A stretch of DNA of 64,000 nucleotides from Thermoplasmata archaeon (GCA_034667685.1 JAXDQU010000106.1:11610-75609), one strand, 5' to 3'; shown: positions 8,054 through 58,284, numbered from the stretch's first letter. Numbers and translations: made by a program. Notes: generated from the letters alone by a model not told the origin.

Positions 8054-8123
8054 CCGCATGCGGAGCCGCGCAGCGCCCGCGCGGCAGCGAACCTTTATCG
8101 GCGGCACGCCTGTCCCCGCCTTC

Positions 8124-8846
8124 ATGCCTGAGGACTATGCAGCCTTCCTGAAGCGCGCACGCAGCAAGGTGCCCGAGAAGGTGGGCACGGGCGAGCGCTT
8201 CGTGATGCCGCAGATGGACGTCCTCCAGGAGGGCAAGCTCACCATCGTGCGCAACATGGCCGAGGTGCTCGACCGGCTCAACCGTCCCAGCGACCACCTC
8301 GTCCCGATCCTCCTGCGCGAGGTCGGCACGGCGGGCAGCTACGAGGACGGCCGCCTCACGCTCCAGGCCAAGGTCAGCCCGGACAGCCTCCAGACGCGCC
8401 TCGAGAAGTACGTCGAGACGTACGTCATCTGCGGCGAGTGCGGCCGCCCCGACACGCACCTCATGAAGGAGGAGCGCACGACCATCCTGAAGTGCGACGC
8501 GTGCGGCGCGCACCGGCCGATCAAGGGCGCGGCCAAGAAGGCCGCCGTCAAGCCCGAGGAGGCCGTCGTCGAGGGCAAGACCTACGAGGTCATGATCGAG
8601 GACAACGGCAAGCGCGGCGACGGCATCGCGCGGCGCGACCGCTACACCATCTTCGTGAAGGGCGCGCAGAAGGGCAACGTCTACCACGTCAAGATCGAGA
8701 AGGTCACGGGCACGCTCGCGTTCGGCGAGATCGTCAGCGCCGCGGCCGCGACGCCCAACACGGCCGGCCCCAAGACCGCCGCGCAGGCCGCCGCGGGCAA
8801 CAAGCCTGCTTCGGGCGCGAAGCCCGGCGGCCCCGCCAAGAAGTGA
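8124..8846 (+). CDS. translation initiation factor aIF2 beta subunit with C-terminal TRAM domain
   Basis: eIF2-beta/eIF5 core with the C4 zinc ribbon (CGECGRPDTHL...CDACGA), then TYEVMIEDNGKRGDGIARRDRYTIFVKGAQKGNVYHVKIEKVTGTLAFGEIV (TRAM-like beta-barrel) and an Ala/Lys/Pro-rich tail. Weak TTTATC ~28 nt upstream suggests a leaderless transcript. Confidence 0.8.
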   Translation: MPEDYAAFLKRARSKVPEKVGTGERFVMPQMDVLQEGKLTIVRNMAEVLDRLNRPSDHLVPILLREVGTAGSYEDGRLTLQAKVSPDSLQTRLEKYVETYVICGECGRPDTHLMKEERTTILKCDACGAHRPIKGAAKKAAVKPEEAVVEGKTYEVMIEDNGKRGDGIARRDRYTIFVKGAQKGNVYHVKIEKVTGTLAFGEIVSAAAATPNTAGPKTAAQAAAGNKPASGAKPGGPAKK

Positions 8847-21457: not shown

Positions 21458-21685
21458 ATGCCATCCCGCACGCTGAACGTCACGCAGGAAGCCTACGACC
21501 TGTTATCAGCCCTGAAGGGCCCGAACGAGAGCTTCACCGACGTCATCAAGCGCCTCGCGGGCGAGCGCTCGCTCCTCGACGTCGTGGGCGCGCTGGACGA
21601 GGCGCAGGCCGCGAAGCTGGAGGCGCGCGTGGAGTCGGCCCGCGAGCGCGCGCGAAAGCGGCGGCAGAAGCAGCTGAGGGTGTGA
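21458..21685 (+). CDS. vapB: VapB-type antitoxin (archaeal SFTDVIKRL family)
   Basis: 75-aa product (MPSRTLNVTQEAYDLLSALKGPNESFTDVIKRL...), 4 nt upstream of a PIN-domain gene. Confidence 0.55.
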   Translation: MPSRTLNVTQEAYDLLSALKGPNESFTDVIKRLAGERSLLDVVGALDEAQAAKLEARVESARERARKRRQKQLRV

Positions 21686-21689
21686 GACG

Positions 21690-22085
21690 ATGGCGCTGGC
21701 CGACACGCTCTTCCTGCTGGATCTCATGCGCGGGCGCGAGCGCGCCGTCGCGATGCTCGAGGCGCTGGAGGACGAGGGCGAGGCCATCCTGCTCGCGGCG
21801 CCCACGCTCGCCGAGTTCCACCGCGGCCTGGGCACGCTGGCGCTTCCCGCCGCGCAGCAGCGGCGGCTCGTCGAGGCGGTCCACGGCCGCGTCGTCCTGC
21901 CGCTGGACGCGGCGGCGGCGCGGCGCGCGGGCGAGGTGGACGCGCAGCTCTGGGCGCGCGGCGAGGCGATCGACCCCGAGGACGCGGCGCTGGCCGGCAT
22001 CGCGCTGACGCGGGACCAGGTGCTCGTGACGCGCAAGGCGCGCGAGCTGGGCCGCGTCCCGGGGCTGAGGCTGCGGACCTACTAG
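21690..22085 (+). CDS. vapC: PIN-domain ribonuclease toxin VapC
   Basis: 131 aa. Acidic residues positioned as in PIN domains (D5, E, D). Operon partner of the preceding antitoxin. Confidence 0.6.
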   Translation: MALADTLFLLDLMRGRERAVAMLEALEDEGEAILLAAPTLAEFHRGLGTLALPAAQQRRLVEAVHGRVVLPLDAAAARRAGEVDAQLWARGEAIDPEDAALAGIALTRDQVLVTRKARELGRVPGLRLRTY

Positions 22086-22129: not shown

Positions 22130-23098
22130 GTGCCGCGCGTCCGCCCGTTGGACCTGCTCAAGCGCGCCCTGAAGGAGTGGGGCGAGGACAAGGCGCCCAA
22201 GCAGGCGGCCGCGCTCGCCTACTACAGCGTGTTCGCCCTGGGGCCCTTGCTGCTCGTGTGCGTGCTCGTCGCCGCGCTGGCGGTGGGCCGGGAGGCCGCG
22301 CAGCAGGCGATCCTCGCGCCCTTCGCCCGCCTCACGGGGGACGCGGGCGCGCAGGCGGCGGGCGACATCCTGCACGGCGCCGGTCCGCGCGGGTCGAGCC
22401 TCGTGGGCATCGCGACGGGGGCGGTCGCGCTCGTGCTGGGCGCGATGGGCGTCTTCACGCAGCTCAAGGAGGCCTTGAACACCGTCTTCGAGGTCGCGCG
22501 CAAGCCGCGACGCGGGCTGCGCGCCAAGATCCGCGGCGCCGTGCGCGACGACGCGCTCTCGTTCGCGGGCGTGATGACGGGCGCCTTCCTGCTCGCGGTG
22601 ACGCTCGTGGTCTCCGCCGGCATCGCGGCCCTCGCCGGGTGGATCGACGCGCTCCTGCCCGGAGGCGCCGCGCTGGGGATCGCGCTGGAGGCCGTGCTCG
22701 CGCTCATCGTGCTCACGCTGCTCTTCGCGGCGCTCTTCAAGCTCGTCCCCGACGTGAGGATCGCCTGGCGCGACTCCTTCGTGGGCGGCGCCGCGACCGC
22801 CATCCTCTTCGTCGCGGGCCAGGCGCTCATCGGCGTCTACCTGGGCCGGAGCGGCTTCGCGGCGCGCTACGGGGGCGCCGGCGCCGCGCTGCTGATCCTG
22901 CTCTGGATCTACTACTCCTCGCTCATCCTCGTCTTCGGCGCGGAGCTCACCCAGGTGTACGCGAACCTCTACGGCCGGCGCGTCAAGCCCGCGCCCAACG
23001 CCCGCTCGCTCCAGGAGCAGGTGCTCGACGAGCACCGCGGGCCGGATCGCGAAGGCACCGAGGGACGGCCGGTGAGCCGCAGGCGCCCCGCTACTTGA
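22130..23098 (+). CDS. YihY/BrkB (RNase BN-like) family membrane protein
   Basis: GTG start. Signature AALAYYSVFALGPLLLV and six TM segments. Confidence 0.7.
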   Translation: MPRVRPLDLLKRALKEWGEDKAPKQAAALAYYSVFALGPLLLVCVLVAALAVGREAAQQAILAPFARLTGDAGAQAAGDILHGAGPRGSSLVGIATGAVALVLGAMGVFTQLKEALNTVFEVARKPRRGLRAKIRGAVRDDALSFAGVMTGAFLLAVTLVVSAGIAALAGWIDALLPGGAALGIALEAVLALIVLTLLFAALFKLVPDVRIAWRDSFVGGAATAILFVAGQALIGVYLGRSGFAARYGGAGAALLILLWIYYSSLILVFGAELTQVYANLYGRRVKPAPNARSLQEQVLDEHRGPDREGTEGRPVSRRRPAT

Positions 23099-23669
23099 TC
23101 AGCGCCTGCACGGCCTTGAACTGCGGATGCTCCTTGCCGCCCATGAGCTCGAAGAGCGCCATCTCGACGTTGCTCGGCTCCGCGCCGTGGCGGCGGGCGC
23201 GCGCGAGGCCGCTCTCGCGGTTGGCCGGGTCGCGCGACCCTACGGCGTCCTCGACCACGTGGACGGCGTAGCCCGCTTCGAGAAGGTCGAGCGTCGTCTG
23301 GAGGACGCAGATGTGCGCCTCGATGCCCGCGACGAGGACGTTGGGCCTCCCCGCGGCGCGGATGCGCGCCGCGATGCTCGGGTCGCCCGCGCACGAGAAG
23401 CTCGTCTTCTCCAGCACGCCGCCGGCCGCGTCCACCGCCGCGCGAAGCTCGGGGATCGTGTGGCCCAACCCCTTCGGGTACTGCTCGGTGACCATGACCG
23501 GCACGCCCAGGAGACGCGCCCCCTCCGCGAGCGCGGCCGCCTTCTGACGCAGCGCCGCGTCGCCGTGGATCAGCGGCTGAAGGCGCTCCTGCATGTCGAC
23601 GAGAAGCAGCAGCGTGTCGTCCGGATGGAGGCGGGACATGGGTGCGGCAGGTCGTCCGCGCGGCATCAT
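23091..23669 (-). CDS. isochorismatase-family cysteine hydrolase
   Basis: LLLVDMQ, HICVLQT (Cys nucleophile), VVEDAVGSRD. Start at MM (23669) or MSRLH (23639). Confidence 0.7.
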   Translation of the reverse strand: MMPRGRPAAPMSRLHPDDTLLLLVDMQERLQPLIHGDAALRQKAAALAEGARLLGVPVMVTEQYPKGLGHTIPELRAAVDAAGGVLEKTSFSCAGDPSIAARIRAAGRPNVLVAGIEAHICVLQTTLDLLEAGYAVHVVEDAVGSRDPANRESGLARARRHGAEPSNVEMALFELMGGKEHPQFKAVQALIK

Positions 23670-23698
23670 GGTTTGTCCTCGCGGCTCGGCCGGCTCCG

Positions 23699-23892
23699 CA
23701 TGCGACGCGGCGACGGACGCGACGCGCGCGACGGCGGGCTTCGGTCGTCCATGCTGACCTCGGTGTGAACCCGACGGCCCGATGACCAGACTTTCACCCC
23801 GGGTTCTCGGGTTCGCGGGTCCTCGGGTTCCGCCAAGGTCACCAGCCCCGCGTCGCGCGCGTCGCGCCCGTCGCCGCGTCGCATGCGCAGCT
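23699..23892. mobile_element. MITE-like element, copy 2 (intact ~33-bp terminal inverted repeats)
   Basis: Left end GCATGCGACGCGGCGACGGACGCGACGCGCGCGA. Right end is its near-perfect reverse complement (...CGCGCGCGTCGCGCCCGTCGCCGCGTCGCATGC). Internal CGGGTTCTCGGGT motifs are shared with copy 1. Lies in the divergent intergenic region between the isochorismatase gene and speA. Confidence 0.45.
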
Positions 23893-23937
23893 GCGAAGCG
23901 TCGGCGCGGACCCGCCCCGACGAACAGCTTAAGGGAC

Positions 23938-25971
23938 ATGCGCATCGTGCCCGCTCTCGTGAAGGCAGGCGCCCAGCACGAGGAGCCCTGGACGGTCGAG
24001 CGCGCGTTGCAGTTCTACAACGTCGAGGGGTGGGGCGCGTCGTTCTTCACCATCAACCCCAACGGGAACCTCTGCGTGACGCCCTACGGCCAGCCGGGGC
24101 CCGTCATCGAGATCATGGACGTGATCGAGGACGCGCAGGAGAAGGGGCTCGGCTTCCCGCTGGTCATCCGCTTCAACGACATCCTGCGCACGCGCGTCGT
24201 GAAGCTCAACGACAAGTTCCGCGACGCCATCGCGTCGAACGGCTACAAGGGCGGCTACTTCGGCGTCTATCCCGTGAAGGTCAACCAGCTCCGCGAGGTC
24301 GTCGAGGAGATCCTGGACGCGGGCGCGCCCTACCACCACGGGCTGGAGGCGGGCAGCAAGCCCGAGCTCTTCGTCGCGCTCGCGCTGAACACCGATCCCG
24401 ACGCGCTCACCATCTGCAACGGCTACAAGGACGAGGACTACATGCGCCTCGCGCTCTCGGGCCGCAAGCTGGGCCGCAAGGTCATCGTCGTCATCGAGAA
24501 GCTCAGCGAGCTTCCGCTCCTGCTGCGCGTGGCGGCCGAGATGGGCGTCGAGCCGCTCATCGGCCTGCGCGCGAAGCTCACCACGAAGGGCGTGGGCAAG
24601 TGGGAGAAGAGCAGCGGCGACTTCGCCAAGTTCGGCCTCACCATCCCCGAGCTGATCGAGGCCGTCCGTCTCCTGAAGGAGGCGAACAAGCAGGACGCGT
24701 TGAAGCTGTTCCACTTCCACGTGGGCTCCCAGCTCACCGACATCCGCACCATCAAGGACGCCGTGAAGGAAGGCGCGCGCATCTACGCCAAGCTGCGCAA
24801 GATGGGGATGCCCGTCGAGTTCTTCGACATCGGCGGCGGCCTCGCCGTGGACTACATGGGGAGCCGCAACACCGACAACAGCAGCACCAACTACACGCTC
24901 GACGAGTACTGCGGCGACGTCGTGTACAACGTGCAGCAGATCTGCGAGAGCGAGGAGGTCCCCGTCCCCAACCTCGTCTCGGAGAGCGGCCGCGCGCTCA
25001 CGGCCTACCACTCCTGCATCATCATGAACGTCTTCGGCAACATCGAGATCGGCTCGCCCAAGGTGGCCATCCCGACCAACGCCGAGGAGTTCGGCGTCGA
25101 GATCGTCAAGCAGATGCGCGAGATCGTCGATGGCGTCACGCCCAAGAGCGCGCTGGAAAGCTATCACGACGCCACCGCCAAGAAGGACGAGGCGCTCGAC
25201 GCCTTCCGCCTGGGCCTCATCGGGCTGGAGGAGCGCGCCGCCGTCGAGGCGATGTTCTGGGAATTGATGAAGAAGCTCGTCCCGCTCACCAAGAAGATGC
25301 GCCGCGTCCCCGAGGACCTCCAGGACATCGAGACGAAGCTCGCCGACCAGTATCTCGCGAACTTCTCGCTCTTCCAGAGCGCCCTCGACCACTGGGCCTT
25401 CGACCAGCTCTTCCCCGTCATGCCCGTGCACCGCCTCGACGAGGCGCCCACGCACGAAGCCACGCTCGTGGACATCACGTGCGACTCCGACGGCAAGATC
25501 GACGAGTTCGTCGGCCCCGAATCCAGCGCGCCCACCGTGAAGCTCCATGATATCAGAGGCAACGAGCCCTACTTCATCGGCATGTTCCTCACCGGCGCCT
25601 ACCAGGACATCATGGGCGACATGCACAACCTCTTCGGACGCACCAACGAAGTCCACGTCTTCGTCGACGACGAGGACCCCGAGGACTTCTACCTCGAGAC
25701 CGTCATCCCCGGCGACATCATCAGCGACGTCCTCGCCCGCGTCCAGTACGAGCCGCGCGAGATGCTCCGTCGGGTCAAGACCGCGATCGACGCGCGCGTC
25801 AAGGACCCGCAGTTCCCGCTGAAGCCCAAGGACGGCGTCGCCATCATGGACTTCCTGGAGCAGACGCTGCGCAGCTACACGTACCTCCTGCCCATGAGCG
25901 CGGACGGCAGCGAGCGCATCACGCCCGCCGCGGTCAAGGCGCTCGAGGCGCCCAAGACCGAGCGCGCATGA
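23938..25971 (+). CDS. speA: biosynthetic arginine decarboxylase (PLP, fold type III)
   Basis: 677 aa. Strong SpeA blocks (FYNVEGWGASFFTINPNGNL, GFPLVIRFNDILRTRV, GGYFGVYPVKVNQ, HFHVGSQ). Confidence 0.8.
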   Translation: MRIVPALVKAGAQHEEPWTVERALQFYNVEGWGASFFTINPNGNLCVTPYGQPGPVIEIMDVIEDAQEKGLGFPLVIRFNDILRTRVVKLNDKFRDAIASNGYKGGYFGVYPVKVNQLREVVEEILDAGAPYHHGLEAGSKPELFVALALNTDPDALTICNGYKDEDYMRLALSGRKLGRKVIVVIEKLSELPLLLRVAAEMGVEPLIGLRAKLTTKGVGKWEKSSGDFAKFGLTIPELIEAVRLLKEANKQDALKLFHFHVGSQLTDIRTIKDAVKEGARIYAKLRKMGMPVEFFDIGGGLAVDYMGSRNTDNSSTNYTLDEYCGDVVYNVQQICESEEVPVPNLVSESGRALTAYHSCIIMNVFGNIEIGSPKVAIPTNAEEFGVEIVKQMREIVDGVTPKSALESYHDATAKKDEALDAFRLGLIGLEERAAVEAMFWELMKKLVPLTKKMRRVPEDLQDIETKLADQYLANFSLFQSALDHWAFDQLFPVMPVHRLDEAPTHEATLVDITCDSDGKIDEFVGPESSAPTVKLHDIRGNEPYFIGMFLTGAYQDIMGDMHNLFGRTNEVHVFVDDEDPEDFYLETVIPGDIISDVLARVQYEPREMLRRVKTAIDARVKDPQFPLKPKDGVAIMDFLEQTLRSYTYLLPMSADGSERITPAAVKALEAPKTERA

Positions 25972-26948
25972 TCCGGGAGCGCCTCGCCCGCGAAGCGCCC
26001 ATCCGCGTGCGCGACGCGATGAAGATGTGTCTAGACGCCTACTAGGGCGGCGGCCGCCCCATTGGGGCGGCCGGAGATTTCTACACCGCCGCCAACGCCT
26101 CGCTCTTCAGCCACGCGATGGCGCGCTTCGCCCACGCGGCCGCGGAGCGCCTCGAAGGCGCGCGCATCGTCGAGCTGGGCGGCGGCACCGGCATCCTCGC
26201 CGCCACGCTGGACGCGCCCGTCACGATCGTCGAGCCCCATGCCGGCATGGCCGCGCAGCAGAAGGCGCGCGGGCTCCACGTCGTCGCCTCGCTGGACGAC
26301 CTGCGCCCGGCCCCCACCATTTTCCTCGCCAACGAGGTGCTCGACGCGCTCCCCGTGCACCGCCTGCTCGGGACGGCCGAGGGCGTGCGCGAAGGCTACC
26401 TCGACGCGGACCTGCGCGAGGTGCCGGGCCCCCTCTCGCCCGAGCTGGCCGAGGCCGCCAAGCGCCTCGAGCATCTGCTTCCGGAAGGCGCGGCGGCGGA
26501 GGTGTGCCTCGACGCGCAGCCGCTCCTCGCGCAGATGGCCCGCGCCGCGCCGCGCGGCTACGCGCTCTTCCTCGACTACGGCGACGCGCCCGAGAAGCTC
26601 AACCCGGCCGGCACGCTGCGCGGCTTCCGTGAGCACCGCGTCGTCCCCCCCTTCGAGGCGCCCGGCGAGCATGATATCACGGCCGACGTCGACTTTCCGT
26701 GGATCGCCACGCTCGCGCAGCGCGAAGGGTGGCGCCAGCACGCGACCACGCGCCAGCGCGACCTCCTCGCCGACCTCGGCCTCGTGGAGGACATGATGGG
26801 CGCGATGTCGCGCGGCGACCACGCGGCCTACCTCGCGGGCAAGAACCTGCTCGTCGGCATGGGCGAGCGCTTCGGCGCGCTGCTCCTCGCCCGCGACGCG
26901 CCGCTCGATCCTCCGCTGCCCGGCTTCCGCGCGAGGGGCCTGCGATGA
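25968..26948 (+). pseudogene. NDUFAF7/MidA-like (COG1565) SAM-dependent methyltransferase, interrupted by an in-frame TAG at 26043..26045
   Basis: ATG overlaps the speA stop (ATGA). The reading frame MIRERLAREAPIRVRDAMKMCLDAY-TAG-GGGRPIGAAGDFYTAANASLF... is continuous and aligns with paralog 26945..27949 (IAAEGPIPFHDFMALALAEYYGRGPAIGPGGDFSTSVRF). The TAG sits where the paralog has Tyr (TAC to TAG). The ORF track only picks up the downstream part from 26118. Confidence 0.5.
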
Positions 26949-27949
26949 GCGCCGAGGCCGCGATCCGCGCGCGCATCGCCGCGGAGGGCCCGATCCCGTT
27001 CCACGACTTCATGGCGCTCGCCCTCGCGGAATACTACGGGCGCGGTCCCGCCATCGGCCCCGGCGGCGACTTCAGCACGAGCGTGCGCTTCCCCGCGTTC
27101 CGCCGCGCGATGGCCCGGCTCGTCGCGCACGCGCGCCAGGCCGTGCCGGACCTGCGCGTGGTCGAGCTGGGCGCCGGCACGGGGCAGCTCGCGCGCAGCA
27201 TCCTCGCCGAGCACCCGGGCCTCGACTACGTCACCGTCGACCCCAGCGAAGCGCTGCGCGAGCGCCAGCGCGAGGCCGGCGCGCGGCCGGTCGCCTCGCC
27301 CGGGATGCTATCACCCGCGCCCTCGCTCGTCTTCGGGAACGAGGTGCTCGACGCGCTCCCCGTGCGCCGCGTGGTGGGCGCGCCCGATGGCGGCCTGCTG
27401 GAGATCGGCGTCGACGTGAAGGAGGGACGCTTCCGCGAGCGGCTGATCCCCATGCGCGACGCGCGCGTCGAGGCGCGCCTGAAGGCCGAGGGCGTCTGGC
27501 CCGCGCGGGGGCAGGTGTTCGACGTCGCGCCCATGCTGGAGGACGTCGTCCGCGCCGCCGCGCGCCTCGTCGATCCCGGCTTCCTCGTCTTCGTCGACTA
27601 CGGCGACCCCGCGCCCGCGCTCTACGGCCCGCAACGGCTGCACGGCACGCTCGCGGCGTACAAGGCGGGCGGGCGCTTCCAGGAGCCGCTCGATGAGCCG
27701 GGCCGCCGCGACCTCACCGCCGACGTCGATTTCACCGCGGTCGAGCGCGCCGCGACGGAGGCGGGCCTGGAGCCGCTCGGCCTCGTCACGCAGGGCGCGT
27801 TCCTCGAAGCGCTGGGCATCGGCGACCTGGGCCTCCCCGACGAGGTGCGCGACGTCGCGGGCATGGCCGGCCTGGGCAGCGCGTTCCACGTCGCCGCGTT
27901 CCGGCGCGGGACGAGCGCCACGCTTCCCGGCTACGCGCCTTCGCGCTGA
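26945..27949 (+). CDS. NDUFAF7/MidA-like (COG1565) SAM-dependent methyltransferase
   Basis: Family blocks (GPIPFHDFM, GDFSTS, VVELGAGTGQLA, FGNEVLDALPV, LTADVDFT). ATG overlaps the stop of the preceding paralog. Confidence 0.7.
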   Translation: MSAEAAIRARIAAEGPIPFHDFMALALAEYYGRGPAIGPGGDFSTSVRFPAFRRAMARLVAHARQAVPDLRVVELGAGTGQLARSILAEHPGLDYVTVDPSEALRERQREAGARPVASPGMLSPAPSLVFGNEVLDALPVRRVVGAPDGGLLEIGVDVKEGRFRERLIPMRDARVEARLKAEGVWPARGQVFDVAPMLEDVVRAAARLVDPGFLVFVDYGDPAPALYGPQRLHGTLAAYKAGGRFQEPLDEPGRRDLTADVDFTAVERAATEAGLEPLGLVTQGAFLEALGIGDLGLPDEVRDVAGMAGLGSAFHVAAFRRGTSATLPGYAPSR

Positions 27950-28469: not shown

Positions 28470-30065
28470 GTGCAGCCGTTCCTCCTCGGGGAGCAGCCCC
28501 TCCGCGTGCCGGACGTCGTGGACGTCGCGCGCCGCCAGCGCCGGGTCGCCCTCGCGCCCGCCGCCCGCGCCCGCATCGAGGCCTCCCGCGCGCGCGTCGT
28601 GCGCATGCTCGGCCACGACGCCGACATGCACTACGGCGTCACCAGCGACGCGCGCCTCCCGATCTCGCGCATGCAGGTCGAACGCTACGACGCCAAGAGC
28701 GGCGTCGCGTACGGCGTCACGACCGGCTTCGGCGAGCTCGCCCGCGTCCGCATCCCCGCCGAGGACCTCGAAGCGCTCCAGCGCAACCTCCTCCTCTCGC
28801 ACGCCTGCGGCGTGGGCGACCCCCTCCCCGACGAGGTCGTCCGCGCCCTCCTCCTCCTGCGCGCCGCGAGCCTCGCCGTGGGCTTGTCGGGCGTGCGCGT
28901 CGAGACCGTCGAGGCGATCCTCGCCCTGCTGAACCATGATATCACGCCCGTCGTCCCCTCGCGCGGAAGCCTGGGCGCCTCGGGCGACCTCGTGCCCCTC
29001 GCGCACGCCTCGCTGGTCCTCATCGGCGAAGGCGAAGCGCGCCACCAGGGCAAGCTCATCTCCGGCCGCGAGGCGATGGCGGCCGCGGGCCTCGCGCCGC
29101 TCGTCCTCCAACCCAAGGAAGGCCTCGCGCTGATCAACGGCACGCAGATGATGAGCGCCCTGCTCGCGCTCGCGGTCCACGACGGCTGGGCGCTCGTCCG
29201 CACCGCCGAGGTCGCGGCCGCCATGAGCATCGAGGCGCTCCTGGGCAGCGTCGCCCCCTTCGACGCGCGCCTCCAGGCCGCGCGCCCGCACCCCGGCCAG
29301 GCCGAGACGGCGGCGCACCTGCGCGCGCTCCTGGAAGGCTCGGGGATCGTGGCGTCGCACGCCGACTGCGACCGCGTCCAGGACGCCTACTCGCTGCGCT
29401 GCACGCCGCAGGTCCTCGGCCCCGTCCGCGACGCCCTCCGCCACGCCCAGGAGCGCCTGGAGGTCGAGCTCTCCAGCGTCACCGACAACCCCCTGATCCT
29501 GGAGGACGGCGCGCACAGCGGGGGCAACTTCCACGGCGAGAACCTGGGCCTCCTCTGCGCGTACCTGGCGCCCGCGCTCGCCGAGGTCGCCGCGCTGGCC
29601 GAGCGCCGCGTCGCGCGCCTCGTCGACCCGCGCCTCTCCGAGGGATTGCCCGCCTTCCTCGTGGAGAAGAGCGGCCTCAACAGCGGACTCATGATCCCGC
29701 AGTACGTCGCCGCGGCGCTCGTGCTGGAGAACCAGGTCCTCGCGCACCCCGCCGTCGTGGGCAGCCTTCCCACGAGCGCGAACCAGGAGGACCTCGTGAG
29801 CAACGGCGCCGTGGGCGCGCTGCTCCTGCGCCAGATCCTGGAGAACGCGCAGCGCGTCGTGGGCATCGAGCTCCTCTGCGCCGCGCAGGCGCTCGACCTG
29901 CGCAAGCCGCTGGAGCCGGGCGTCGGCACGCGCAAGGCGCTCGCGCGCGTGCGGCAGGAAATCGCGTTCCTCCACCACGACCGGGTGCTATCAGGCGACC
30001 TCGCGAAGGCGCACGCCCTGGTCCGCGCCGGCGCCATCCTCGCGGCGACCGGAGGCGCGCCGTAG
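28470..30065 (+). CDS. hutH: histidine ammonia-lyase-like MIO enzyme (HAL/PAL family)
   Basis: GTG start. MIO-forming Ala-Ser-Gly triad in GSLGASGDLVPLAH. YGVTTGFG, NLLLSHACGVG, QDAYSLRC blocks. ~25-aa insertion near the N-terminus relative to canonical HutH. Confidence 0.75.
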   Translation: MQPFLLGEQPLRVPDVVDVARRQRRVALAPAARARIEASRARVVRMLGHDADMHYGVTSDARLPISRMQVERYDAKSGVAYGVTTGFGELARVRIPAEDLEALQRNLLLSHACGVGDPLPDEVVRALLLLRAASLAVGLSGVRVETVEAILALLNHDITPVVPSRGSLGASGDLVPLAHASLVLIGEGEARHQGKLISGREAMAAAGLAPLVLQPKEGLALINGTQMMSALLALAVHDGWALVRTAEVAAAMSIEALLGSVAPFDARLQAARPHPGQAETAAHLRALLEGSGIVASHADCDRVQDAYSLRCTPQVLGPVRDALRHAQERLEVELSSVTDNPLILEDGAHSGGNFHGENLGLLCAYLAPALAEVAALAERRVARLVDPRLSEGLPAFLVEKSGLNSGLMIPQYVAAALVLENQVLAHPAVVGSLPTSANQEDLVSNGAVGALLLRQILENAQRVVGIELLCAAQALDLRKPLEPGVGTRKALARVRQEIAFLHHDRVLSGDLAKAHALVRAGAILAATGGAP

Positions 30066-30586
30066 TGCCCCCCGAGCTGCGCGGCGAGCGCGTCGTCCTG
30101 CGCGCGCCCACGGAGCGGGACGTCCCCTTCCTCCTGGCGTTCGCCAACGACCCCGACCTGCGCGGGTGGCTGCGCTTCACGATGCCCACGACCGAGGAGC
30201 TGGAGCTGCGCTGGCTCGCCAGCCTCGACGACGCGCACGACCGCGTCTGGCTCATGCTCGACGGGACGCGCGCCGTGGGCTGCGTCGGCCTGCACGGCTG
30301 GGACCCGGTCGCGCGCCACGCCGAGCTGGGCCTGGGGATCCTGCTCCCCGCGGATCGAGGGCGCGGCCTGGGCCACGAGGCGTGCGCGCTCGCCCTGCGC
30401 CACGCCTTCGACGAGATGGGGCTCCAGCGCGTCTGGCTCCACGTGATCGAGGACAACCCGGCGCGCAAGCTCTACGAGCGCCTCGGCTTCCGCGAGGAGG
30501 GGCGCCTGCGCCGGCACGTCTACAAGCGCGGCGCGTGGCGCGACAGCATCGCGATGGGCCTGCTGCGCGAGGAGCGGCGCGGATGA
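30065..30586 (+). CDS. GNAT family N-acetyltransferase (RimJ/RimL-like)
   Basis: GTG start overlapping the hutH TAG by 1 nt. Acetyl-CoA motif RGRGLGHEA...LGFREEG. Confidence 0.65.
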   Translation: MPPELRGERVVLRAPTERDVPFLLAFANDPDLRGWLRFTMPTTEELELRWLASLDDAHDRVWLMLDGTRAVGCVGLHGWDPVARHAELGLGILLPADRGRGLGHEACALALRHAFDEMGLQRVWLHVIEDNPARKLYERLGFREEGRLRRHVYKRGAWRDSIAMGLLREERRG

Positions 30587-31035
30587 GCGTCTTCCTGCGC
30601 GGGCCGCGCGTCGACGTGCTCGCGAGCGACGCCGCCGACCCCGCCTTCGCCGCGGCGCGCGAGCCGTGGCTCCTTCCCGCCGGCGCGCCCGCGGTCGACG
30701 TGGACATGGACGGCGAGGTGAGCCTCGTCTGGGCGCCCGCGCGCGGCGGGAAGACGGGCGGCAGCCTCGCGCTGGCCGACGTCGACTGGATCGCGCGCCG
30801 CGCCCTGCTCGTCGCGTACCTGGCCCCCGGCGCGCCGCGCGACCTGGCCCGCGAGGCGCTCGCGCTGGTGGTCCGCTACGCGCAGGACGAGCTCGCGCTC
30901 GAACGGCTCGACGCGCAGGTCCGCGCCGGGGACGCGGGGACGCTGGCGGCGCTCGCCGCGCTCGGCTTCGTCAAGGAAGCCGAACGGGTCGACGTGGTCA
31001 TTTGCTCGCGCCGCGTGCCCGTCCACCCGCGTTGA
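30583..31035 (+). CDS. GNAT-like acetyltransferase (divergent)
   Basis: ATG overlaps the previous stop (ATGA). ~150 aa with a GNAT-like C-terminal half (LVVRYAQDELALERLDAQVRAGDAGTLAALAALGFVKEAE). Confidence 0.45.
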   Translation: MSVFLRGPRVDVLASDAADPAFAAAREPWLLPAGAPAVDVDMDGEVSLVWAPARGGKTGGSLALADVDWIARRALLVAYLAPGAPRDLAREALALVVRYAQDELALERLDAQVRAGDAGTLAALAALGFVKEAERVDVVICSRRVPVHPR

Positions 31036-33228: not shown

Positions 33229-34401
33229 TTATCCGATCACGAGCGTCTCCTTCTCCGGCTGCCAGCCGGGCCCGAAGCGGTCGAGCCGGTAGGGCTTCGG
33301 GTCGACGGGCGGCTGGCGCCCCAGGATCAGGTCGGCGACGATGCGCGTCGTCATGGGGCTCACCATGAAGCCGTGGCCGGAGGCGCCGTTGAGCTGGAGC
33401 AGGTTGTCGACGCCGGGCGTCGGGCCGAGGATCGGCTTGTTGTCCGGCGTGACGTCGTACGCGCCGGCCCACTGGCGCATCACCTTGACCTCGCCCAGCG
33501 TGGGCAGGACGTCGAGGAGGGCGCGCGCGACGCGCTTGGTGAAGTCGAAGCTGCTCGCGAAGTTGACGCCGGGCTTCTCGCCGGGCGTGCCGATGCCGCA
33601 GACCAATTCGCCCCGCATGTCCTGGCTCGCGTAGAGGCCGTTGCGCAGGTCGACGACCATCGGGTCGAGGAACGGCTTCAACGCCTCGGTGACGAGGATC
33701 TCGTGGCGCACCGGCGTGTTGGGAAGCTCCACGCCCGCGAGCGCGGCCACCTCGCGGCTCCAGCACCCCGCGGCGTTGACCACCGTCTCGCACGCCACCC
33801 GTCCGCGCGTGGTCTCGACCGCCACGATGCGGCCCCCCGAGGTCTCGAAGCCGGTGGCGCCCGTGAAGGTGCGCACGTCGACGCCCAGCTCGACGCAGCG
33901 CTTGGCGAGCCCCTGCACGACGGCCCACGGGAAGATGATGCCGTCGCCCGGATGATAGCTCGCGGCGACGAGGCCCTCCAGGTTCAGCTCGGGCACCAGG
34001 ACGTGCGCCTCGGTGGGCTCGACGTAGCGGCTGGGCACGCCGTTGGCGTTGTGGAACTTGACGACGTCGCGCAGCGCGCGCGCCTTCTCCTCGTCGTGCG
34101 CGAGGAAGAGGTAGCCGCCCTGCCGGAACCAGACGTTGAAGCCCAATTCCTGGCTCATGCTGCGGAACATCGGGATGCTCTCGCGCGCCAGGACGAGGTT
34201 GTCGCCCGTGCCCCACTGCGCGCGCACGCCGCCGCCGTTCCGGCCGCTGGCGCCGTGCAGGAGATAGCTTTTCTCCAGGACGAGGACGTCGGTGACGCCG
34301 GCCAACGCGAGGTGGCGCGCGAGCCCCAGGCCGTTGACGCCGCCCCCGACGATCACGACCTGATATCGTTCCCGCAGCGGGCCCTCGGTGGTGAACCTCA
34401 C
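33229..34401 (-). CDS. FAD-dependent oxidoreductase, sarcosine oxidase beta / HcnC / proline dehydrogenase beta-like
   Basis: GTG start. Dinucleotide-binding YQVVIVGGGVNG. DAO-family blocks (HGASGRNGGGV, GLYASQD..GE, GASGHGFM). Confidence 0.7.
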   Translation of the reverse strand: MRFTTEGPLRERYQVVIVGGGVNGLGLARHLALAGVTDVLVLEKSYLLHGASGRNGGGVRAQWGTGDNLVLARESIPMFRSMSQELGFNVWFRQGGYLFLAHDEEKARALRDVVKFHNANGVPSRYVEPTEAHVLVPELNLEGLVAASYHPGDGIIFPWAVVQGLAKRCVELGVDVRTFTGATGFETSGGRIVAVETTRGRVACETVVNAAGCWSREVAALAGVELPNTPVRHEILVTEALKPFLDPMVVDLRNGLYASQDMRGELVCGIGTPGEKPGVNFASSFDFTKRVARALLDVLPTLGEVKVMRQWAGAYDVTPDNKPILGPTPGVDNLLQLNGASGHGFMVSPMTTRIVADLILGRQPPVDPKPYRLDRFGPGWQPEKETLVIG

Positions 34402-34667
34402 TCCGCTTCCCCCGCGAGGTAGCGCAGCGGGATGGGCTGGACGGGCGCGCGGAAGGTGATCGCGCCCAGCGCCCCGGCGGGCTGGCCCGTCTCCTCGGCG
34501 AGCATCTGGCGCGCGAGCGTCAGGCACGTCTTCCCCTGGCAGGGGCCGGTGGCGAAGCCCGTGAGGCGCTTGAGGCTCTCCAGGTCCGTGCAGCCCGCGG
34601 CGATGGCCTCGCGAAGCTCGACGTCGTTGACGTCCTCGCACGCGCATACGATGCACTTGGGGGTCAA
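34398..34667 (-). CDS. small (2Fe-2S)-binding BFD-like subunit
   Basis: 89 aa with CIVCACEDV...GPCQGKTC. TTG start 7 nt after GGAGG, overlapping the upstream stop (TTGA). Its stop overlaps the downstream GTG (GTGA). Confidence 0.5.
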   Translation of the reverse strand: MTPKCIVCACEDVNDVELREAIAAGCTDLESLKRLTGFATGPCQGKTCLTLARQMLAEETGQPAGALGAITFRAPVQPIPLRYLAGEAE

Positions 34668-48202: not shown

Positions 48203-49240
48203 TTACAAGCGCTTCTGCGCGACGAAAAGCTCCGCACCCAGCACGTTGGACCCGGCCGCGCCGCGGATCGTGTTGGACCCGCTCGCGATCCAGCGCAGGT
48301 CTAGCACGTTGTCGGGCCGGATGCGCCCCACGCTCACGGCCATGCCCTTCTCCGCATACACGTCCTTGCGCGGCTGCGGCCGGTCGGGCTCGCTGCGCAC
48401 GTGGAGCGGGCGCAGCGGCGCGCTGGGCAGCTTGAGCTTCTGCGGCGCGCCCTGCCACGTCGCCATGACCTCCGCGGCTTCCTCGGGTGTGGGCTTGCTG
48501 CGGAACTGCGCGGTGATCGCGACGGTGTGCCCCTCCTGCACGGGGACGCGGACGCACGTCGCGCTCACGCCGATCTCGGCGAGCTTGACGCCCTCCGGCG
48601 CGACGGCGCCGAGGAACTTGCGCGTCTCCTTCTCCATCTTCTCTTCTTCGCCGCCGATGTGCGGGATCACGTTGTTCATGATCGCCAGCGACGGAACGCC
48701 AGGATAACCGGCGCCGCTGACGGCCTGGTACGTCGCGAAGAAGACCTTCTCCAGGCCGAACACGTCGTGAAGCGGCTTGAGGCTCATCAGCGCGGTGATG
48801 GTGCTGCAGTTGCCGTTGGTGACGATCTTGCCGCGCGTCTTCTGGCGTTCGACCAGCGCGAGGTGGTCCGGGTTGACCTCGGGCAGGAGGAGCGGCACGT
48901 CGGCGTCCCAGCGGTGGTCGCGGGCGTTGCTGAAGACGTGGATCCCGCGCTCGGCGAGCGAGGTCTCGATCGGCCCTGCCTTGCCTCCGGGAATGGCGCT
49001 GAAGACGAGGTCGACGTCGAGGTCGTCCGCGGGCGTCTTGACGCGCATGTCGCGCACCGATGCCGGCATCGGATCGTCGACGACCCACGTGGCGGCGTCC
49101 TTGTAGAGCTTGCCGGCGCTCCGCTCGGAGGCGACGAGCTCGGTGACGCGGAACCAGGGGTGGTTGTCGAGGAGCATGGCGAATCGCTGGCCCACCATGC
49201 CGGTGGCGCCGAGGATGCCGACTTTCACGGTCTGGGTCAT
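48203..49240 (-). CDS. asd: aspartate-semialdehyde dehydrogenase
   Basis: [15 protein letters not shown](P) motif, active-site NGNCSTI, QAVSGAG. ATG overlaps the lysC stop (ATGA). Confidence 0.85.
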
Positions 49241-50643
49241 GACGGATTCTCCTTGGGCGCCGGGCGTTCGAAGAGGAACTCGTGGTGGATGGCGCGCACG
49301 CAGGCGTCTCGGTCCTTGCGCTTGACGACGAAGTTGAGCGCGATGTCGGACGCGCCCACCGAGATCATCTCGATGTTGACGCCCGCCTTGCCCACGGCGG
49401 TGAAGATCTTGCCGGCGGTGCCCTGCGAGCTGCCGATGCCGCGGCCCACGACGCAGATCAGCGTCATGTCGGTGATGCCCTCGACGCTCTGGATGGTGCC
49501 CTCGCGGATCGACTCCAGCGCCTTGAGGCCGCGGTCGAGGTCCTGCTCCTCGATGAGCAGGGCGAAGCTGGCCTGGCTCGCGGCCATGTTGTAGACGTTG
49601 ACCTTGGCCTTGGCGAGCGCGTCGAACACCTTCTGGCCGATGCCCGGCGTGTACGCCATGCCGGGGCCGTAGATCTTCAGGATCGCGAGGCTGTCCTTGG
49701 TGGCCGCGCTGCGCAGCGCGTCGCGGCGCATCGAGGCGACGCCGGTGATCAGGGTGCCCTGGACGTCGGGCTGCTGCGTGTTGCGCACGAGGATCGGGAT
49801 GTGGTGGTCCTTGAGCGGCTCGACCGTGCGCGGGTGGAGGACCTTCGCGCCCACACCCGCAAGCTCCGCCGCCTCCTCGTAGGTCATCTCGGCGATGGGC
49901 TGCGCGTCCTTGAGGATGCGCGGGTCGGCGGTGAGGAAGCCGTCGACGTCCTTCCAGACCTCGAGGCGCTGCGCGCGCAGGGCGGCCGCGACGATGGCGG
50001 CGGCGTAGTCGCTCCCGCCGCGGCCGAAGGTGGTGACGCGGCCCACGGCGTCGCAGCCGAAGAAGCCCGTGAGCACCGGCGTGACGCCTTCGCGCAGGCG
50101 GCCCACGAGCGAGCGTTCGAGGTTGCGCTCGATGGCGCTCATGATGGGCGTCGCGTTGCCGAAGACGCCGTCGGTGAGCATGCCCGCCTCGTCCGCGTCG
50201 AGCGCTTCGGCGGGGACGCCGCGGCTGCGCAGGACGCCCGCGAGCAGGCGCACGCTCATGCGCTCGCCGAACGAGACGGCGAGGTCCTTCGTCTTGGCCG
50301 TGAGCTCCTCGGTGTACGCGATGCCGTAGAGCAGGCGCTCGAAACGTTGCAGCAGCGCGTCCATCTCCTGCGTGACGCGGAGCGTCTCGGGCTCCGTGGC
50401 GCCGGCCTCCTGCAGCGCGCCCAGGTGCTTGCCGAGCATCTCGCGCAGGAAGGGCTCGATCGCCCCCTCGTCGCGCTGCACGCGCGGGAGGACGTTGAGG
50501 ATCGCGTCGGTGACGCCGGCCATCGCGGAGATGACGACGACGCGCTCGGGCGGCGCCTGGCCCACGATGTCGCTGACGCGGACGAGCATCTTGCCCGACC
50601 CGACGCTCGTGCCGCCGAACTTCATCACGATCAATCGTACCAC
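49237..50643 (-). CDS. lysC: aspartate kinase (with C-terminal ACT domains)
   Basis: [21 protein letters not shown], two ACT repeats ([11 protein letters not shown]..., [11 protein letters not shown]...). Confidence 0.85.
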
Positions 50644-51713
50644 TCCTGGACCTGCGCCATGTAGGCGCGGAACGCCTGGCGGTCGGGCACCGCGGCCTCC
50701 AACGCATCAAGGCTTCGCCGGAGCCGCGCGAGCACCTCCGCGGTGTGCGGATTGAGGCGCTGGATCTCGTGGTAGAGGTCCTTGTTCTCGTGGGCGACCT
50801 CGCGGCTCACGGCGACCTGCTTCTGGAACGTGGGGCCGCCCAGGCCCCGGACCTGCTCGAAGGAAATCGGCTGCGAGGCGAGCGCGTGGCCGAACGCGAG
50901 CGCGACGGCGTGCGGAAGCCCGAGCACGAGCCCCATGTAGCGGTCGTGCTCCTCCAGGCCCATCTCGACGACGTGCGCCGCGGTGTGCGCGAAGAGGTCG
51001 CGCGCCGCGCGCGCCGCCTCCGCGTTCCCGCAGTCGCACACGACGAGGTTGCGCCCCGCGAGCAGGTCGGCGCCCGGGCCCCACATGGGATGGAGGCTCG
51101 CGACGCGCGTGCCGGAGGCGGCGAGCGCCCGCAGGGCGTCGGCGTGGGGCGCCTTGAGGCTCGCGATGTCCACGACGAGGCCGCGCGTCTTGCCCTGGAG
51201 CGCGCGCAGGGCGTCCGCGGTCGCGCTGGGCGGCGTGGCGAGGAGCACGAGGTCGTAGTCCTTCGCGGCGCTGGCGAAGTCCGGGACATGCTTGCGCCCG
51301 GGCGGCGCGCCGCGCGGGTCGGCGACGGCGACCTCGTGCCCCATGCTCTCGAGGAACTCGACGAACCAGCGCCCCATGTTGCCCGCGCCGCCCACCACGA
51401 GCGCCTTGCCCGCGTGGCCGTCGGCCTTGACGCGGCCGGCGCGGTCCTTCTCCTGCACGCGGAGGCTCTCGCGGATCTCCAGCTTGAGCAGCTCCTCGGC
51501 GACGTTGGGATCGACGCGCAGCGCGCTTGCGGCCTCGCGCACGAGGCGGATGGCCTCGGCCTCCACCACGTAGTTGCGCACGGGCTGGTGCGCCGCGGCC
51601 TTGATATCACCGACACGCCGCGCGAGGTCGAGCCGGCGGGCGGTCATCTCGACGAGGGCGCGGTCGATGGCGCGGATCTCGTCGCGCAGCTTCGCCAATT
51701 CCTCTTCGCTCAG
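50631..51713 (-). CDS. tyrA: bifunctional chorismate mutase (AroQ) / prephenate dehydrogenase (TyrA)
   Basis: N-terminal AroQ helix (SEEELAKLRDEIRAIDRALVEMTARRLDLARRVGDIKAA), then PDH with ALVVGGAGNMGRWF and MGLEEHDRYMGLVLGLPH. Start uncertain: no ATG. Either a CTG overlapping the aroC stop (CTGA) at 51713 or a GTG at ~51764. Confidence 0.7.
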   Translation of the reverse strand: MSEEELAKLRDEIRAIDRALVEMTARRLDLARRVGDIKAAAHQPVRNYVVEAEAIRLVREAASALRVDPNVAEELLKLEIRESLRVQEKDRAGRVKADGHAGKALVVGGAGNMGRWFVEFLESMGHEVAVADPRGAPPGRKHVPDFASAAKDYDLVLLATPPSATADALRALQGKTRGLVVDIASLKAPHADALRALAASGTRVASLHPMWGPGADLLAGRNLVVCDCGNAEAARAARDLFAHTAAHVVEMGLEEHDRYMGLVLGLPHAVALAFGHALASQPISFEQVRGLGGPTFQKQVAVSREVAHENKDLYHEIQRLNPHTAEVLARLRRSLDALEAAVPDRQAFRAYMAQVQEWYD

Positions 51714-52783
51714 GGGCGCGCCTCCAGGAGCAGGTCGAGGAGCACGCACGCGGCGAGGCTCTCGACCACGGGGACGGCGCGCGGCACGATGCAGGGATCG
51801 TGGCGCCCCTTCACCTTCAGGTCGGCGGGCTGGCCCGTGGCGAGGTCCACCGTGCGCTGGGTCAGCGGGATGCTGCTCGTGGGCTTGAACGCCGCGCGGA
51901 AGCGAAGCGGCATGCCCGTCGTCATGCCCCCGAGCGCCCCGCCGTTGTGGTTTGCCTTGGTCGCGACGCGGCCCTCGCGCATCTCCCATTCGTCGCGCGC
52001 CTCGCTGCCGCGCATGCTGGCGAGGCGGAAGCCGTCGCCGAACTCGACGCCTTTGACTGCGGGCACCGCAAAGAGGGCATGGGATAGCATCGACTCGACG
52101 CTGTCCATCAGCGGATCGCCGATCCCCGCGGGCAAGCCTTCGGCGACGCATTCGACGACGCCACCCACGGAATCGCCGGCCTTGCGCGCGGCCTCGACGG
52201 CGTCGACCATGTCCTGCGCGGTGCCGTAGACGGCGCAACGGGCGGGGGTGGCTTCGACGCCCTTGCGGATCTCGGCGACGTCGAGCTGCGCGTCGGTCCA
52301 GACGTGGCCGATTCGAACCGAGTGGGCCGCGATCTCGGCGCCGCGGGTCGATAGCACTTTGGCGGCGAGGCTGCCGGCCATCGTCCACGCGGCGGTGAGG
52401 CGCCCGCTGAAGATGCCGCTGCCGCGCGGGTCGTTGTGGTTTTGATAGCGCACGCCCGCGGGATAGTCGGCGTGGCCGGGGCGCGGCGTGCGGCGCAGGT
52501 CGGCGTAGTCCTGGCTTCGGGGGTCCTCGTTCGCGATCTCCATGAGGATCGGCGCGCCGGTGGTCTTGCCTTCGAAGACGCCGCTGCGGATCTTCACGCG
52601 GTCCGCCTCCTGGCGCTGCGTGGTAAGGAGGCTCTGGCCGGGGCGGCGGCGGTCCATCTGGGGCTGGACGTCGGCCTCGCTGAACGGGACGCCGGGGGGC
52701 GCGCCGTCGACGACGACGCCCACCATCTCGCCGTGGCTCTCGCCGAGGACCGTGAGGCGGTAGCGGCGGCCGATCGTGTTCAT
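51710..52783 (-). CDS. aroC: chorismate synthase
   Basis: Signature blocks (LTVLGESHGE, GRHDPCIVPRAVPVVE). ATG overlaps the aroA stop. Confidence 0.85.
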   Translation of the reverse strand: MNTIGRRYRLTVLGESHGEMVGVVVDGAPPGVPFSEADVQPQMDRRRPGQSLLTTQRQEADRVKIRSGVFEGKTTGAPILMEIANEDPRSQDYADLRRTPRPGHADYPAGVRYQNHNDPRGSGIFSGRLTAAWTMAGSLAAKVLSTRGAEIAAHSVRIGHVWTDAQLDVAEIRKGVEATPARCAVYGTAQDMVDAVEAARKAGDSVGGVVECVAEGLPAGIGDPLMDSVESMLSHALFAVPAVKGVEFGDGFRLASMRGSEARDEWEMREGRVATKANHNGGALGGMTTGMPLRFRAAFKPTSSIPLTQRTVDLATGQPADLKVKGRHDPCIVPRAVPVVESLAACVLLDLLLEARP

Positions 52784-54030
52784 GATATCACCTGGAGGCT
52801 GGCGCCGAGGCGCTGGAAGTCGGTCAGGAAGGCGGGATAGCTGACGGCGTGCGCCTCGTGGTCGTCCAGCACGAGCGGGCCCTGCGCGGCGAGGCCGCAG
52901 ACGGCGAGCGCCATCTCGACGCGGTGGTCGCCTTCCGTGACGAGGCCGCCCGCGCCGTGGACCGGGCCGCCGCGGATGATGGCGCCATCCTCGCGCTCGC
53001 GGGCGTCGACGCCCAGGCGCTGCAGGTTCGTCACCATCGCGCGGATGCGGTCGCTCTCCTTGAAGCGCAGGTGCGCCGCGCCGGATAGCACCGTCTCGCC
53101 CTGCGCATGGGCCGCGATCGCGCAGAGGATGGGGAAGAGGTCGGGCGTGTCGCTGAGATCGGCTTCGATCCCACGCAGCGGCGCCTTCGCGACCGTGACG
53201 CTCCGGCCGCGCGCCGCGACCCTGGCGCCGAAGCGCCGCAGCAGCTCCACGATGGCCCGGTCGCCCTGCGCGGTGCGCTCGGGCAGGTTCTCCACCGTGA
53301 CCTCGCCCGCAAGCGCGCCCGCCGCGAGCGGAAAGGCCGCGGTGCTGAAGTCGCCCGGCACCGGGTAGTCGCGCGCGCGGTAGCTCTGACCGCCGGGCAC
53401 CGCGAGCCCATCCACGCGCGCCCCGAAGTCGCGCATCATCTCCCGGGTGATATCAACGTACGGCTCGCTCTTGAGCGCGCCCTCGATCTCCACCGTGACG
53501 CCCTGCGGCGTCCGGGCGCCGGCGAGGAGCAACGCGCTCACGAACTGGCTCGACACATCGCCGGGAAGACGCGCGCGTCCCCCCTGGAGCGGCCCGCGGA
53601 TGGCGAGCGGCGCATTGCCCTCGGCGCTCGTCGTCTTGGCGCCCAGCGACTCCAGCGCCGCGAGGAGCGGGCCCATCGGACGCTTGCGCAGCGAGGCGTC
53701 GCCCGTGAGCCGGACTTCCGCGCCCGAGAGCGCGACGATCGCGCTGAGCAGCCGCAGCGTCGTCCCGCTGTTGAGGCAATCGATCGTCTCGCGGGGCGCG
53801 CGCACGACGCCGTCGCTCGTGATCCGGATCGCCTCGCCGCGCTCGACCGTGGCGCCGAGCATCTCGACCGCCTGGAGCGTGGCGCGCGGGTCCTCCGAGA
53901 GGAGCGCGTCGCGCACCGTGGTCGTGCCCTCGGCGAGCAGGCCCAGGAGGAGCGCGCGGTGCGTGTAGGACTTGGAGGGCGCGGCCTTGACCGTGCCGTG
54001 GACCGACGAGGGCGAGACGCGGAGGCTCAT
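52780..54030 (-). CDS. aroA: 3-phosphoshikimate 1-carboxyvinyltransferase (EPSP synthase)
   Basis: KSYTHRALLLG, LNSGTTLRLL, DVSSQFVSALLLAGA blocks. 416 aa. Confidence 0.85.
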   Translation of the reverse strand: MSLRVSPSSVHGTVKAAPSKSYTHRALLLGLLAEGTTTVRDALLSEDPRATLQAVEMLGATVERGEAIRITSDGVVRAPRETIDCLNSGTTLRLLSAIVALSGAEVRLTGDASLRKRPMGPLLAALESLGAKTTSAEGNAPLAIRGPLQGGRARLPGDVSSQFVSALLLAGARTPQGVTVEIEGALKSEPYVDITREMMRDFGARVDGLAVPGGQSYRARDYPVPGDFSTAAFPLAAGALAGEVTVENLPERTAQGDRAIVELLRRFGARVAARGRSVTVAKAPLRGIEADLSDTPDLFPILCAIAAHAQGETVLSGAAHLRFKESDRIRAMVTNLQRLGVDAREREDGAIIRGGPVHGAGGLVTEGDHRVEMALAVCGLAAQGPLVLDDHEAHAVSYPAFLTDFQRLGASLQVIS

Positions 54031-56368: not shown

Positions 56369-56369
56369 G

Positions 56370-58156: not shown

Positions 58157-58284
58157 GGTCTGTCGAGGGTGTATACGCGCGGGCATATCAAGACATTGCT
58201 CCGCAAGATTGGTCATCGCCACTGTCCAGAAGTCGCCATTCTGGAAGGATTTATGACTCCGCTGCGCATCCTCGATCATTGGCC

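Follow-up and report, generated by a model that had tools for sequence, protein, structure and literature searches.

In a 64,000-nucleotide (nt) stretch of DNA from a Thermoplasmata archaeon (GCA_034667685.1, JAXDQU010000106.1:11610-75609), referred to below as the window, the gene speA, encoding a pyridoxal phosphate (PLP)-dependent arginine decarboxylase, is directly followed on the same strand by two genes of the MidA/NDUFAF7 methyltransferase family, which we call MT1 and MT2. We conclude that these genes probably represent two unrelated, separately conserved blocks that have come to lie side by side in one species of soil Thermoplasmata with a high content of guanine and cytosine (GC), belonging to the Thermoplasmatota. 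The adjacency of speA and the methyltransferases is a species-specific juxtaposition with no evidence of shared function, and the rearrangement that created it is recent. An original prediction, made from the sequence alone, had described a SpeA of 677 amino acids (aa) with an ATGA overlap into MT1 and a second ATGA overlap from MT1 into MT2. The speA open reading frame (ORF) and both overlaps were confirmed: the TGA stop codon of speA (25969-25971) overlaps the ATG start codon of MT1 at 25968, and the MT1 stop and the MT2 start share the ATGA at 26945-26948. Other overlaps of 4 nt are frequent in the window, e.g., at 30583-30586, 34398-34401, 34664-34667 and 57368-57371. Thus, the overlap alone is no mark of a special functional relationship.

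The evidence that carries this conclusion comes from two surveys of gene neighborhoods. We collected 80 speA loci from other genomes, archaeal ones included, with up to 10 kb of flanking sequence per side, and searched them with MT1 and MT2 using tblastn. A PF02636 homolog was found beside speA in none of them (0/80). For the reverse survey we used 85 MT loci, obtained from a metagenome scan with an MT2 alignment and from look-ups of MT2 orthologs, and no speA was detected near the MTs in any of these (0/85). Seven archaeal relatives have no MTs downstream of speA over about 3 kb in locus L175 and 5-10 kb in the others. Four archaeal loci (L172-L175) were studied in addition to the 80: in L172-L174 speA is followed by a DUF5817 gene in convergent orientation, and in L175 by a co-directional ORF of 158 aa without a family match. 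The closest relative, whose SpeA (P0243) is 89% identical to that of the window, carries both speA and the MT pair on one 378-kb contig (Ga0070741_10000063). The distance between them is about 148 kb, and both are encoded on the same strand: MT1-MT2 is located at ~102.4-104.5 kb, and speA at ~252.4-254.5 kb, where it is followed by a convergent MFS gene. In accordance with this, blastn against the relatives yields two separate homology blocks, one of which (23091-25958) comprises speA and the isochorismatase-family gene upstream of it, and the other (~25989-27935) MT1 and MT2. The original prediction had proposed a functional coupling of speA to the methyltransferases and had named the absence of the linkage from all other genomes among the findings that would refute it. 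The surveys and the 148-kb distance in the closest relative speak for such an absence, and the proposal is not supported.

Each of the two blocks is conserved in its own right. On the speA side, an isochorismatase-family gene precedes speA in divergent orientation in seven archaeal relatives (L005/L171, L006, L007, L008, L172, L173, and L174), as it is in the window. It is the single recurrent neighbor of speA in the archaeal clade and is not found beside bacterial speA genes. The encoded protein gives just a weak YcaC-like match in NCBIfam. Nucleotide homology with the relatives (blastn) stops at 23640 and restarts near 23904, and the divergent promoters of both genes presumably lie within the intergenic region between them.

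Throughout the archaeal clade, MT1 and MT2 are kept together as a unit of two genes. The tandem was seen in the same order and on the same strand in eight loci (L085, L086/L087, L088, L090, L091, L093, L100, and the window). At the junction the two genes overlap by 4 nt, as ATGA or GTGA, in five of the eight loci; a 7-nt spacer separates them in one and longer spacers in two. In L100 the MT1-type (4-666) and MT2-type (2078-2677) genes lie ~1.4 kb apart with no overlap. In addition, 33 MT1 ortholog clusters pair with an MT2 cluster by the size of their longest contig, which is indirect evidence for a location on the same contig. An all-against-all comparison of the flanking ORFs from nine loci returned only the MTs themselves as neighbors recurring in at least three loci, and no flanking gene family was common to more than two of the compared MT loci. 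Because the gene order is conserved, the translational coupling recurrent and the catalytic motifs kept in both proteins, MT1 and MT2 most likely work together, and they probably form a heteromeric methyltransferase of the MidA type.

The assignment of both MTs to the MidA/NDUFAF7 family is clear. They match PF02636 (Methyltransf_28, COG1565; cut-off 23.3 bits) over nearly the whole length of the model, MT1 with 123.5 bits when read through the stop codon described below and MT2 with 124 bits, and they are 35% identical to each other. Among solved structures, MT2 matches 4F3N (E = 1.5e-29) and 1ZKD (E = 1.3e-18), while MT1 matches 1ZKD (2.6e-17), 4F3N (1.4e-9), and 5ZTZ, the MidA of Dictyostelium (2.1e-7). 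Both keep the motifs of the family, which includes human NDUFAF7, MidA and the bacterial proteins 4F3N and 1ZKD. The ExGxGxG motif for binding of S-adenosylmethionine (SAM) reads VELGGGTG in MT1 and VELGAGTG in MT2, and the family signatures NExxDAxP, DYG, and DxTAxVDF appear in each of them as NEVLDALP, DYGD, and D(I/L)TADVDF, which are invariant among the aligned orthologs. Both paralog families retain ExGxGxG, NE(V)LDALP, DYG, and D(L/I/V)TADVDF. The identity of the MT1 orthologs, which measure 329-405 aa, is 53-72%, and that of the MT2 orthologs 49-80%. They derive mostly from metagenome contigs, and the named ones are labelled Thermoplasmatota. What sets MT1-MT2 apart from the rest of the family is that the pair is archaeal and forms a conserved tandem of diverged paralogs with overlapping stop and start codons, whereas the bacterial PF02636 loci examined carry one copy each within the available sequence, many of these loci being short. 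MT1 and MT2 form an exclusive clade in 0/100 bootstraps, and MT2 groups with homologs from Nitrospirales. A set of COG1565 proteins from Nitrospirales (P0196, P0197, P0200, P0233, and others) clusters with the archaeal MT2 and not with the other bacterial homologs. This grouping may point to a transfer of the MT2 type between the domains, in one or the other direction.

The original prediction of two tandem NDUFAF7-like methyltransferases holds insofar as both proteins belong to PF02636, but MT1 is not an intact ORF in the window: an in-frame TAG at codon 26 had been overlooked. The TAG is the reason why just a 276-aa MT1 remnant starting at 26118 is called, both by the Joint Genome Institute (JGI) in the window contig and in the metagenome-assembled genome (MAG) at NCBI. 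It stands in place of Tyr26, a residue that does not vary among 20 MT1 orthologs; the counterpart in MT2, Y31, is likewise the same in all 25 orthologs compared. Many invariant residues are located within the first 54 positions of MT1 in the ortholog alignment. Lacking the conserved N-terminal 50 residues, the product of the sequenced MT1 allele is probably inactive. In L004, a contig from a sister sample, codon 26 is TAT and the sequence is otherwise identical over the compared stretch. JGI calls an intact MT1 of 326 aa in this contig, with a start codon that overlaps the speA stop. Recoding of TAG by pyrrolysine-type read-through is known in some Thermoplasmatota. We considered it for the MT1 stop and rejected it, as TAG ends 15 of the 44 window genes and is thus an ordinary stop codon here, and as the L004 allele encodes Tyr.

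The SpeA protein of the window scores 828 bits against NCBIfam NF003763 (cut-off 369) and 725 bits against TIGR01273 (cut-off 624), with residues 13-650 covered. The Pfam domains Orn_Arg_deC_N, Arg_decarb_HB, and Arg_decarbox_C are all found above their cut-offs. An alignment that spans the whole protein is obtained with three solved SpeA structures, 3N2O from Vibrio vulnificus (E = 2e-144), 3NZQ from Escherichia coli, and 3NZP from Campylobacter jejuni, which share its three-domain architecture and motifs. When aligned with 3N2O, the segments YPVKVNQ, GGGLAVDY, and DITCDSDG consist of identical or near-identical residues. We take YPVKVNQ, with the PLP-lysine, the GGG loop and CDSDG to be the active-site motifs of SpeA. 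We predict with high confidence that the protein decarboxylates arginine to agmatine. It differs from the known SpeA proteins in a 27-residue C-terminal tail past the family model and in its host, a member of the Thermoplasmatota, as the enzyme usually found in archaea is the pyruvoyl-dependent PdaD. In this species, moreover, the speA stop codon shares nucleotides with the start codon of a methyltransferase gene to which speA is not related. Archaea normally make agmatine with pyruvoyl enzymes (PMC12979288, PMC10407285) and require it both to make polyamines and to modify tRNA-Ile with agmatidine (PMC12979288). PdaD, e.g., TK0149 of Thermococcus kodakarensis, presumably catalyzes the same reaction as the window SpeA and serves the same physiological need, but the two enzymes are not homologous and use different cofactors. 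Our literature searches found no report of SpeA in Thermoplasmatota. A clade of PLP-type SpeA in archaea is atypical, but not mechanistically new.

Arginine decarboxylases of the SpeA type are typical of bacteria. The closest homologs of the window SpeA in the protein database are unlabelled metagenome proteins or proteins of Thermoplasmatota (68-79% identity), followed by those of Anaeromyxobacter/Myxococcota (64-67%). When species-representative genomes were scanned, six archaeal loci came first with 69-89% identity, followed by dozens from Anaeromyxobacteraceae and other bacteria with 47-67%. Taken together, the nearest non-archaeal homologs are those of Anaeromyxobacteraceae/Myxococcota at 62-67% identity. 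We built a neighbor-joining (NJ) tree of 77 SpeA sequences with 100 bootstraps. The seven archaeal sequences are monophyletic in 99/100 bootstraps, and in 82 of these 99 trees Anaeromyxobacteraceae are found in the sister group. A clade of archaea and Anaeromyxobacteraceae that excludes Bdellovibrionota, Nitrospira and other distant bacteria was recovered in 66/100. These trees suggest, with moderate confidence, that the SpeA of the archaeal clade goes back to a single acquisition from a Myxococcota-like bacterial donor. The claim that SpeA is of bacterial type and horizontally acquired, which was also made in the original prediction, is therefore still the best reading. The GC content of speA is 65.5% compared to 72-75% around it. 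We rejected this dip as a sign of recent transfer: GC at third codon positions (GC3) is 0.94, as in the neighboring genes, and the dip results from the amino-acid composition (GC at second positions, GC2, of 0.39). With a GC3 of 94% and a codon usage that matches the host fully, the transfer must be old.

The window is part of the JGI contig Ga0467038_0000142, and identical proteins have been deposited as “MAG: Thermoplasmata archaeon” (MEA3201717-19). Its host is archaeal, despite a GC content of 72%. The window contains a gene for aIF2-beta at 8058-8846 (NF008993, 252 bits vs. a cut-off of 243), and it encodes 3-dehydroquinate synthase II (DHQS-II) with an adjacent DeoC-family aldolase. We read the aldolase as ADTH synthase and the two enzymes together as the archaeal entry route to shikimate. 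The loci of the relatives carry an L7Ae-S28e-L24e-NDK operon, AglB, and DUF5817. A MAG labelled “Proteobacteria bacterium Centralia_MAG_189” (L005/L170, JAJPHT010000010.1, GCA_021325135.1) likewise has the L7Ae-S28e-L24e-NDK operon along with a speA of the archaeal clade. The label appears to be wrong, and the MAG appears to be an archaeon closely related to the window organism.

Several other explanations were weighed against that of two independent blocks. A chimeric misassembly at the speA/MT1 junction, or a mis-binned bacterial fragment, can practically be dismissed. It would fit the observations that the speA and MT blocks are unlinked in every relative and that SpeA resembles bacterial proteins, but L004, which comes from a different sample, spans speA-MT1-MT2 with the same join as the window. 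As contigs from two samples carry the join, it is no assembly artefact. The consecutive NCBI accessions of the three proteins (MEA3201717-19), the archaeal genes on both flanks and the uniform GC3 across the junction also speak against this explanation. It is very unlikely, too, that the SpeA clade is ancestrally archaeal and was inherited vertically or donated to bacteria. The archaeal sequences are monophyletic, occur in several Thermoplasmatota lineages with 69-89% identity and have a fully adapted codon usage, all of which would be compatible with such an origin. However, their clade is shallow, and the NJ tree places it inside a broad bacterial radiation to which Anaeromyxobacteraceae, other Myxococcota, Oligoflexia and Nitrospira belong, while Bdellovibrionota and Pseudohongiella branch at a greater distance. 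The SpeA type is, as stated above, typical of bacteria. Archaea normally rely on pyruvoyl enzymes instead (PMC12979288, PMC10407285). We thus prefer acquisition from a bacterium, and hold it about as improbable as an archaeal origin that speA and the MTs are a functional operon in which the substrate methylated by the MTs is agmatine, a metabolite derived from arginine or the SpeA protein. It is true that in this species the three genes follow one another on one strand with ATGA overlaps, and the NDUFAF7 family acts on the guanidino group of protein arginine (PMC3829151). On the other hand, the linkage is absent from the 80 speA loci, the 85 MT loci and the closest relative, the neighborhood of the MT pair differs in each lineage, a stop codon disrupts MT1 in this allele, and overlaps of 4 nt are routine in this genome.

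Two independent blocks in a species-specific arrangement is thus the explanation we favor, and in this species speA, MT1, and MT2 are probably co-transcribed. Some points weigh against our interpretation. The 4-nt overlap between speA and MT1 could couple the translation of MT1 to that of speA here, as a newly evolved local regulatory link. The SpeA trees are NJ trees sampled with a bias toward the nearest relatives of the query, and the support for the nesting of the archaeal clade is moderate (82/99 and 66/100). Finally, a recent lineage-specific duplication as the source of MT1 and MT2 had to be rejected, given the absence of an exclusive clade and the grouping of MT2 with Nitrospirales. 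As for the MT1 stop, the TAG might stem from an error in sequencing or assembly, or represent a minor allele, with MT1 intact and functional in most cells; we regard this as the less likely alternative, albeit one with a real chance of being correct. It is suggested by the TAT codon in the otherwise identical L004 stretch, and by the rest of MT1, which is undamaged and 100% identical to the intact copy. Furthermore, the Logan contig L002 (SRR24887406) begins one base past the variable base (26045/26046), which fits an assembly break at a polymorphic site. Against it, the NCBI MAG (148-kb contig) also gives just the 276-aa MEA3201718.1, and the TAG allele is thus present in two deposited assemblies, though these perhaps derive from the same reads.

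Based on these observations we propose the following course of events. The first block, consisting of the divergent isochorismatase-family gene and speA, would have arisen when the ancestor of the archaeal clade acquired speA long ago from a Myxococcota-like bacterium. SpeA would supply agmatine from arginine, and we infer that agmatine has a physiological role in this organism. The second block would be the MT1-MT2 tandem, encoding SAM-dependent enzymes that may act together, likely as a heteromer, and methylate protein arginine. NDUFAF7 dimethylates Arg-85 of NDUFS2 (PMC3829151, PMC9006661), and by analogy the target of the pair could be a subunit of the NuoD/NDUFS2 type. No nuoD gene is found within the 64-kb window. 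A rearrangement in this species would then have put the second block right behind the speA stop codon.

The features of the locus are listed in Table 1. The convergent ORF that follows MT2 has no Pfam or NCBIfam match, and Rfam and tRNA scans of the whole window gave no matches.

Table 1. Features of the speA-MT1-MT2 locus (window positions, except for the last four lines, which give positions in the loci of relatives).
Feature	Position	Strand	Remarks
Isochorismatase-family hydrolase gene, 182 aa	23091..23639	-	Divergent from speA; PF00857, 104.9 bits
Intergenic region between isochorismatase-family gene and speA, 298 bp	23640..23937	.	From gene coordinates
speA, PLP-dependent (alanine-racemase-fold) biosynthetic arginine decarboxylase, 677 aa	23938..25971	+	NCBIfam, Pfam, structures
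MT1, first MidA/NDUFAF7-family (PF02636, COG1565) methyltransferase paralog	25968..26948	+	Interrupted by in-frame stop in the window
In-frame TAG, codon 26 of MT1	26043..26045	+	Replaces invariant Tyr
MT1 remnant, 276 aa, called by JGI and NCBI (MEA3201718.1)	26118..26948	+	Without the conserved N-terminal 50 residues
MT2, second MidA/NDUFAF7-family paralog, 334 aa, intact	26945..27949	+	PF02636, 124 bits
Convergent ORF, 149 aa	27931..28380	-	JGI call; overlaps MT2 3′ end by 19 nt and ends the co-directional gene run
Isochorismatase-family gene in L171	7349-7897		
Isochorismatase-family gene in L172	4339-4887		
Isochorismatase-family gene in L173	4349-4897		
Isochorismatase-family gene in L174	4333-4881		

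Some further genes of the window were observed along with the locus. A VapB/PIN (VapC) toxin-antitoxin pair is located at 21458-22085 (+), 1.9 kb upstream of speA, in a stretch that is non-syntenic with the closest relative. Directly past the 149-aa ORF, a run of genes at 28470-31035 (+) starts with histidine ammonia-lyase (TIGR01225, 623 bits). Its stop codon shares 1 nt with the gene for a GNAT acetyltransferase, and the next ORF, with a sub-threshold GNAT-like match, overlaps the GNAT gene by 4 nt. The GNAT protein has a weak, below-cut-off similarity to spermidine N1-acetyltransferase. The DHQS-II and DeoC-family aldolase genes, which overlap by 4 nt, belong to an aromatic amino-acid and aspartate-pathway cluster at 49237-58279 (-) that also contains genes for aspartate kinase, chorismate synthase and a fused type I dehydroquinase/shikimate dehydrogenase. 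Between 37200 and 42800 the GC content rises to 78-80% and long ORFs are seen in several frames on both strands; five candidate ORFs from this region were scanned and none had a Pfam match.

The novelty of the locus does not go beyond a new archaeal branch of an enzyme that is already known and the tandem arrangement, not remarked on before, of methyltransferases from a known family. The locus shows that a tight arrangement with overlapping codons can mislead, being in this case the product of a recent rearrangement and not a functional operon. A more far-reaching possibility, which we consider unlikely, is that MT1-MT2 is an obligate heteromeric protein arginine methyltransferase native to the soil Thermoplasmatota clade, and that its capture behind speA has brought it under the control of agmatine synthesis. 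If true, the regulation of arginine methylation would here have become newly tied to arginine decarboxylation. To our knowledge, archaea have not been reported to possess an N-methylating arginine methyltransferase system. Since agmatine is essential in archaea, the archaeal clade with a bacterial PLP-type SpeA is a candidate for non-orthologous displacement, or back-up, of PdaD, and as such of modest interest for the biology of polyamines and tRNA modification. The tandem MidA-like pair provides a concrete, testable lead on the function of the prokaryotic COG1565 proteins.

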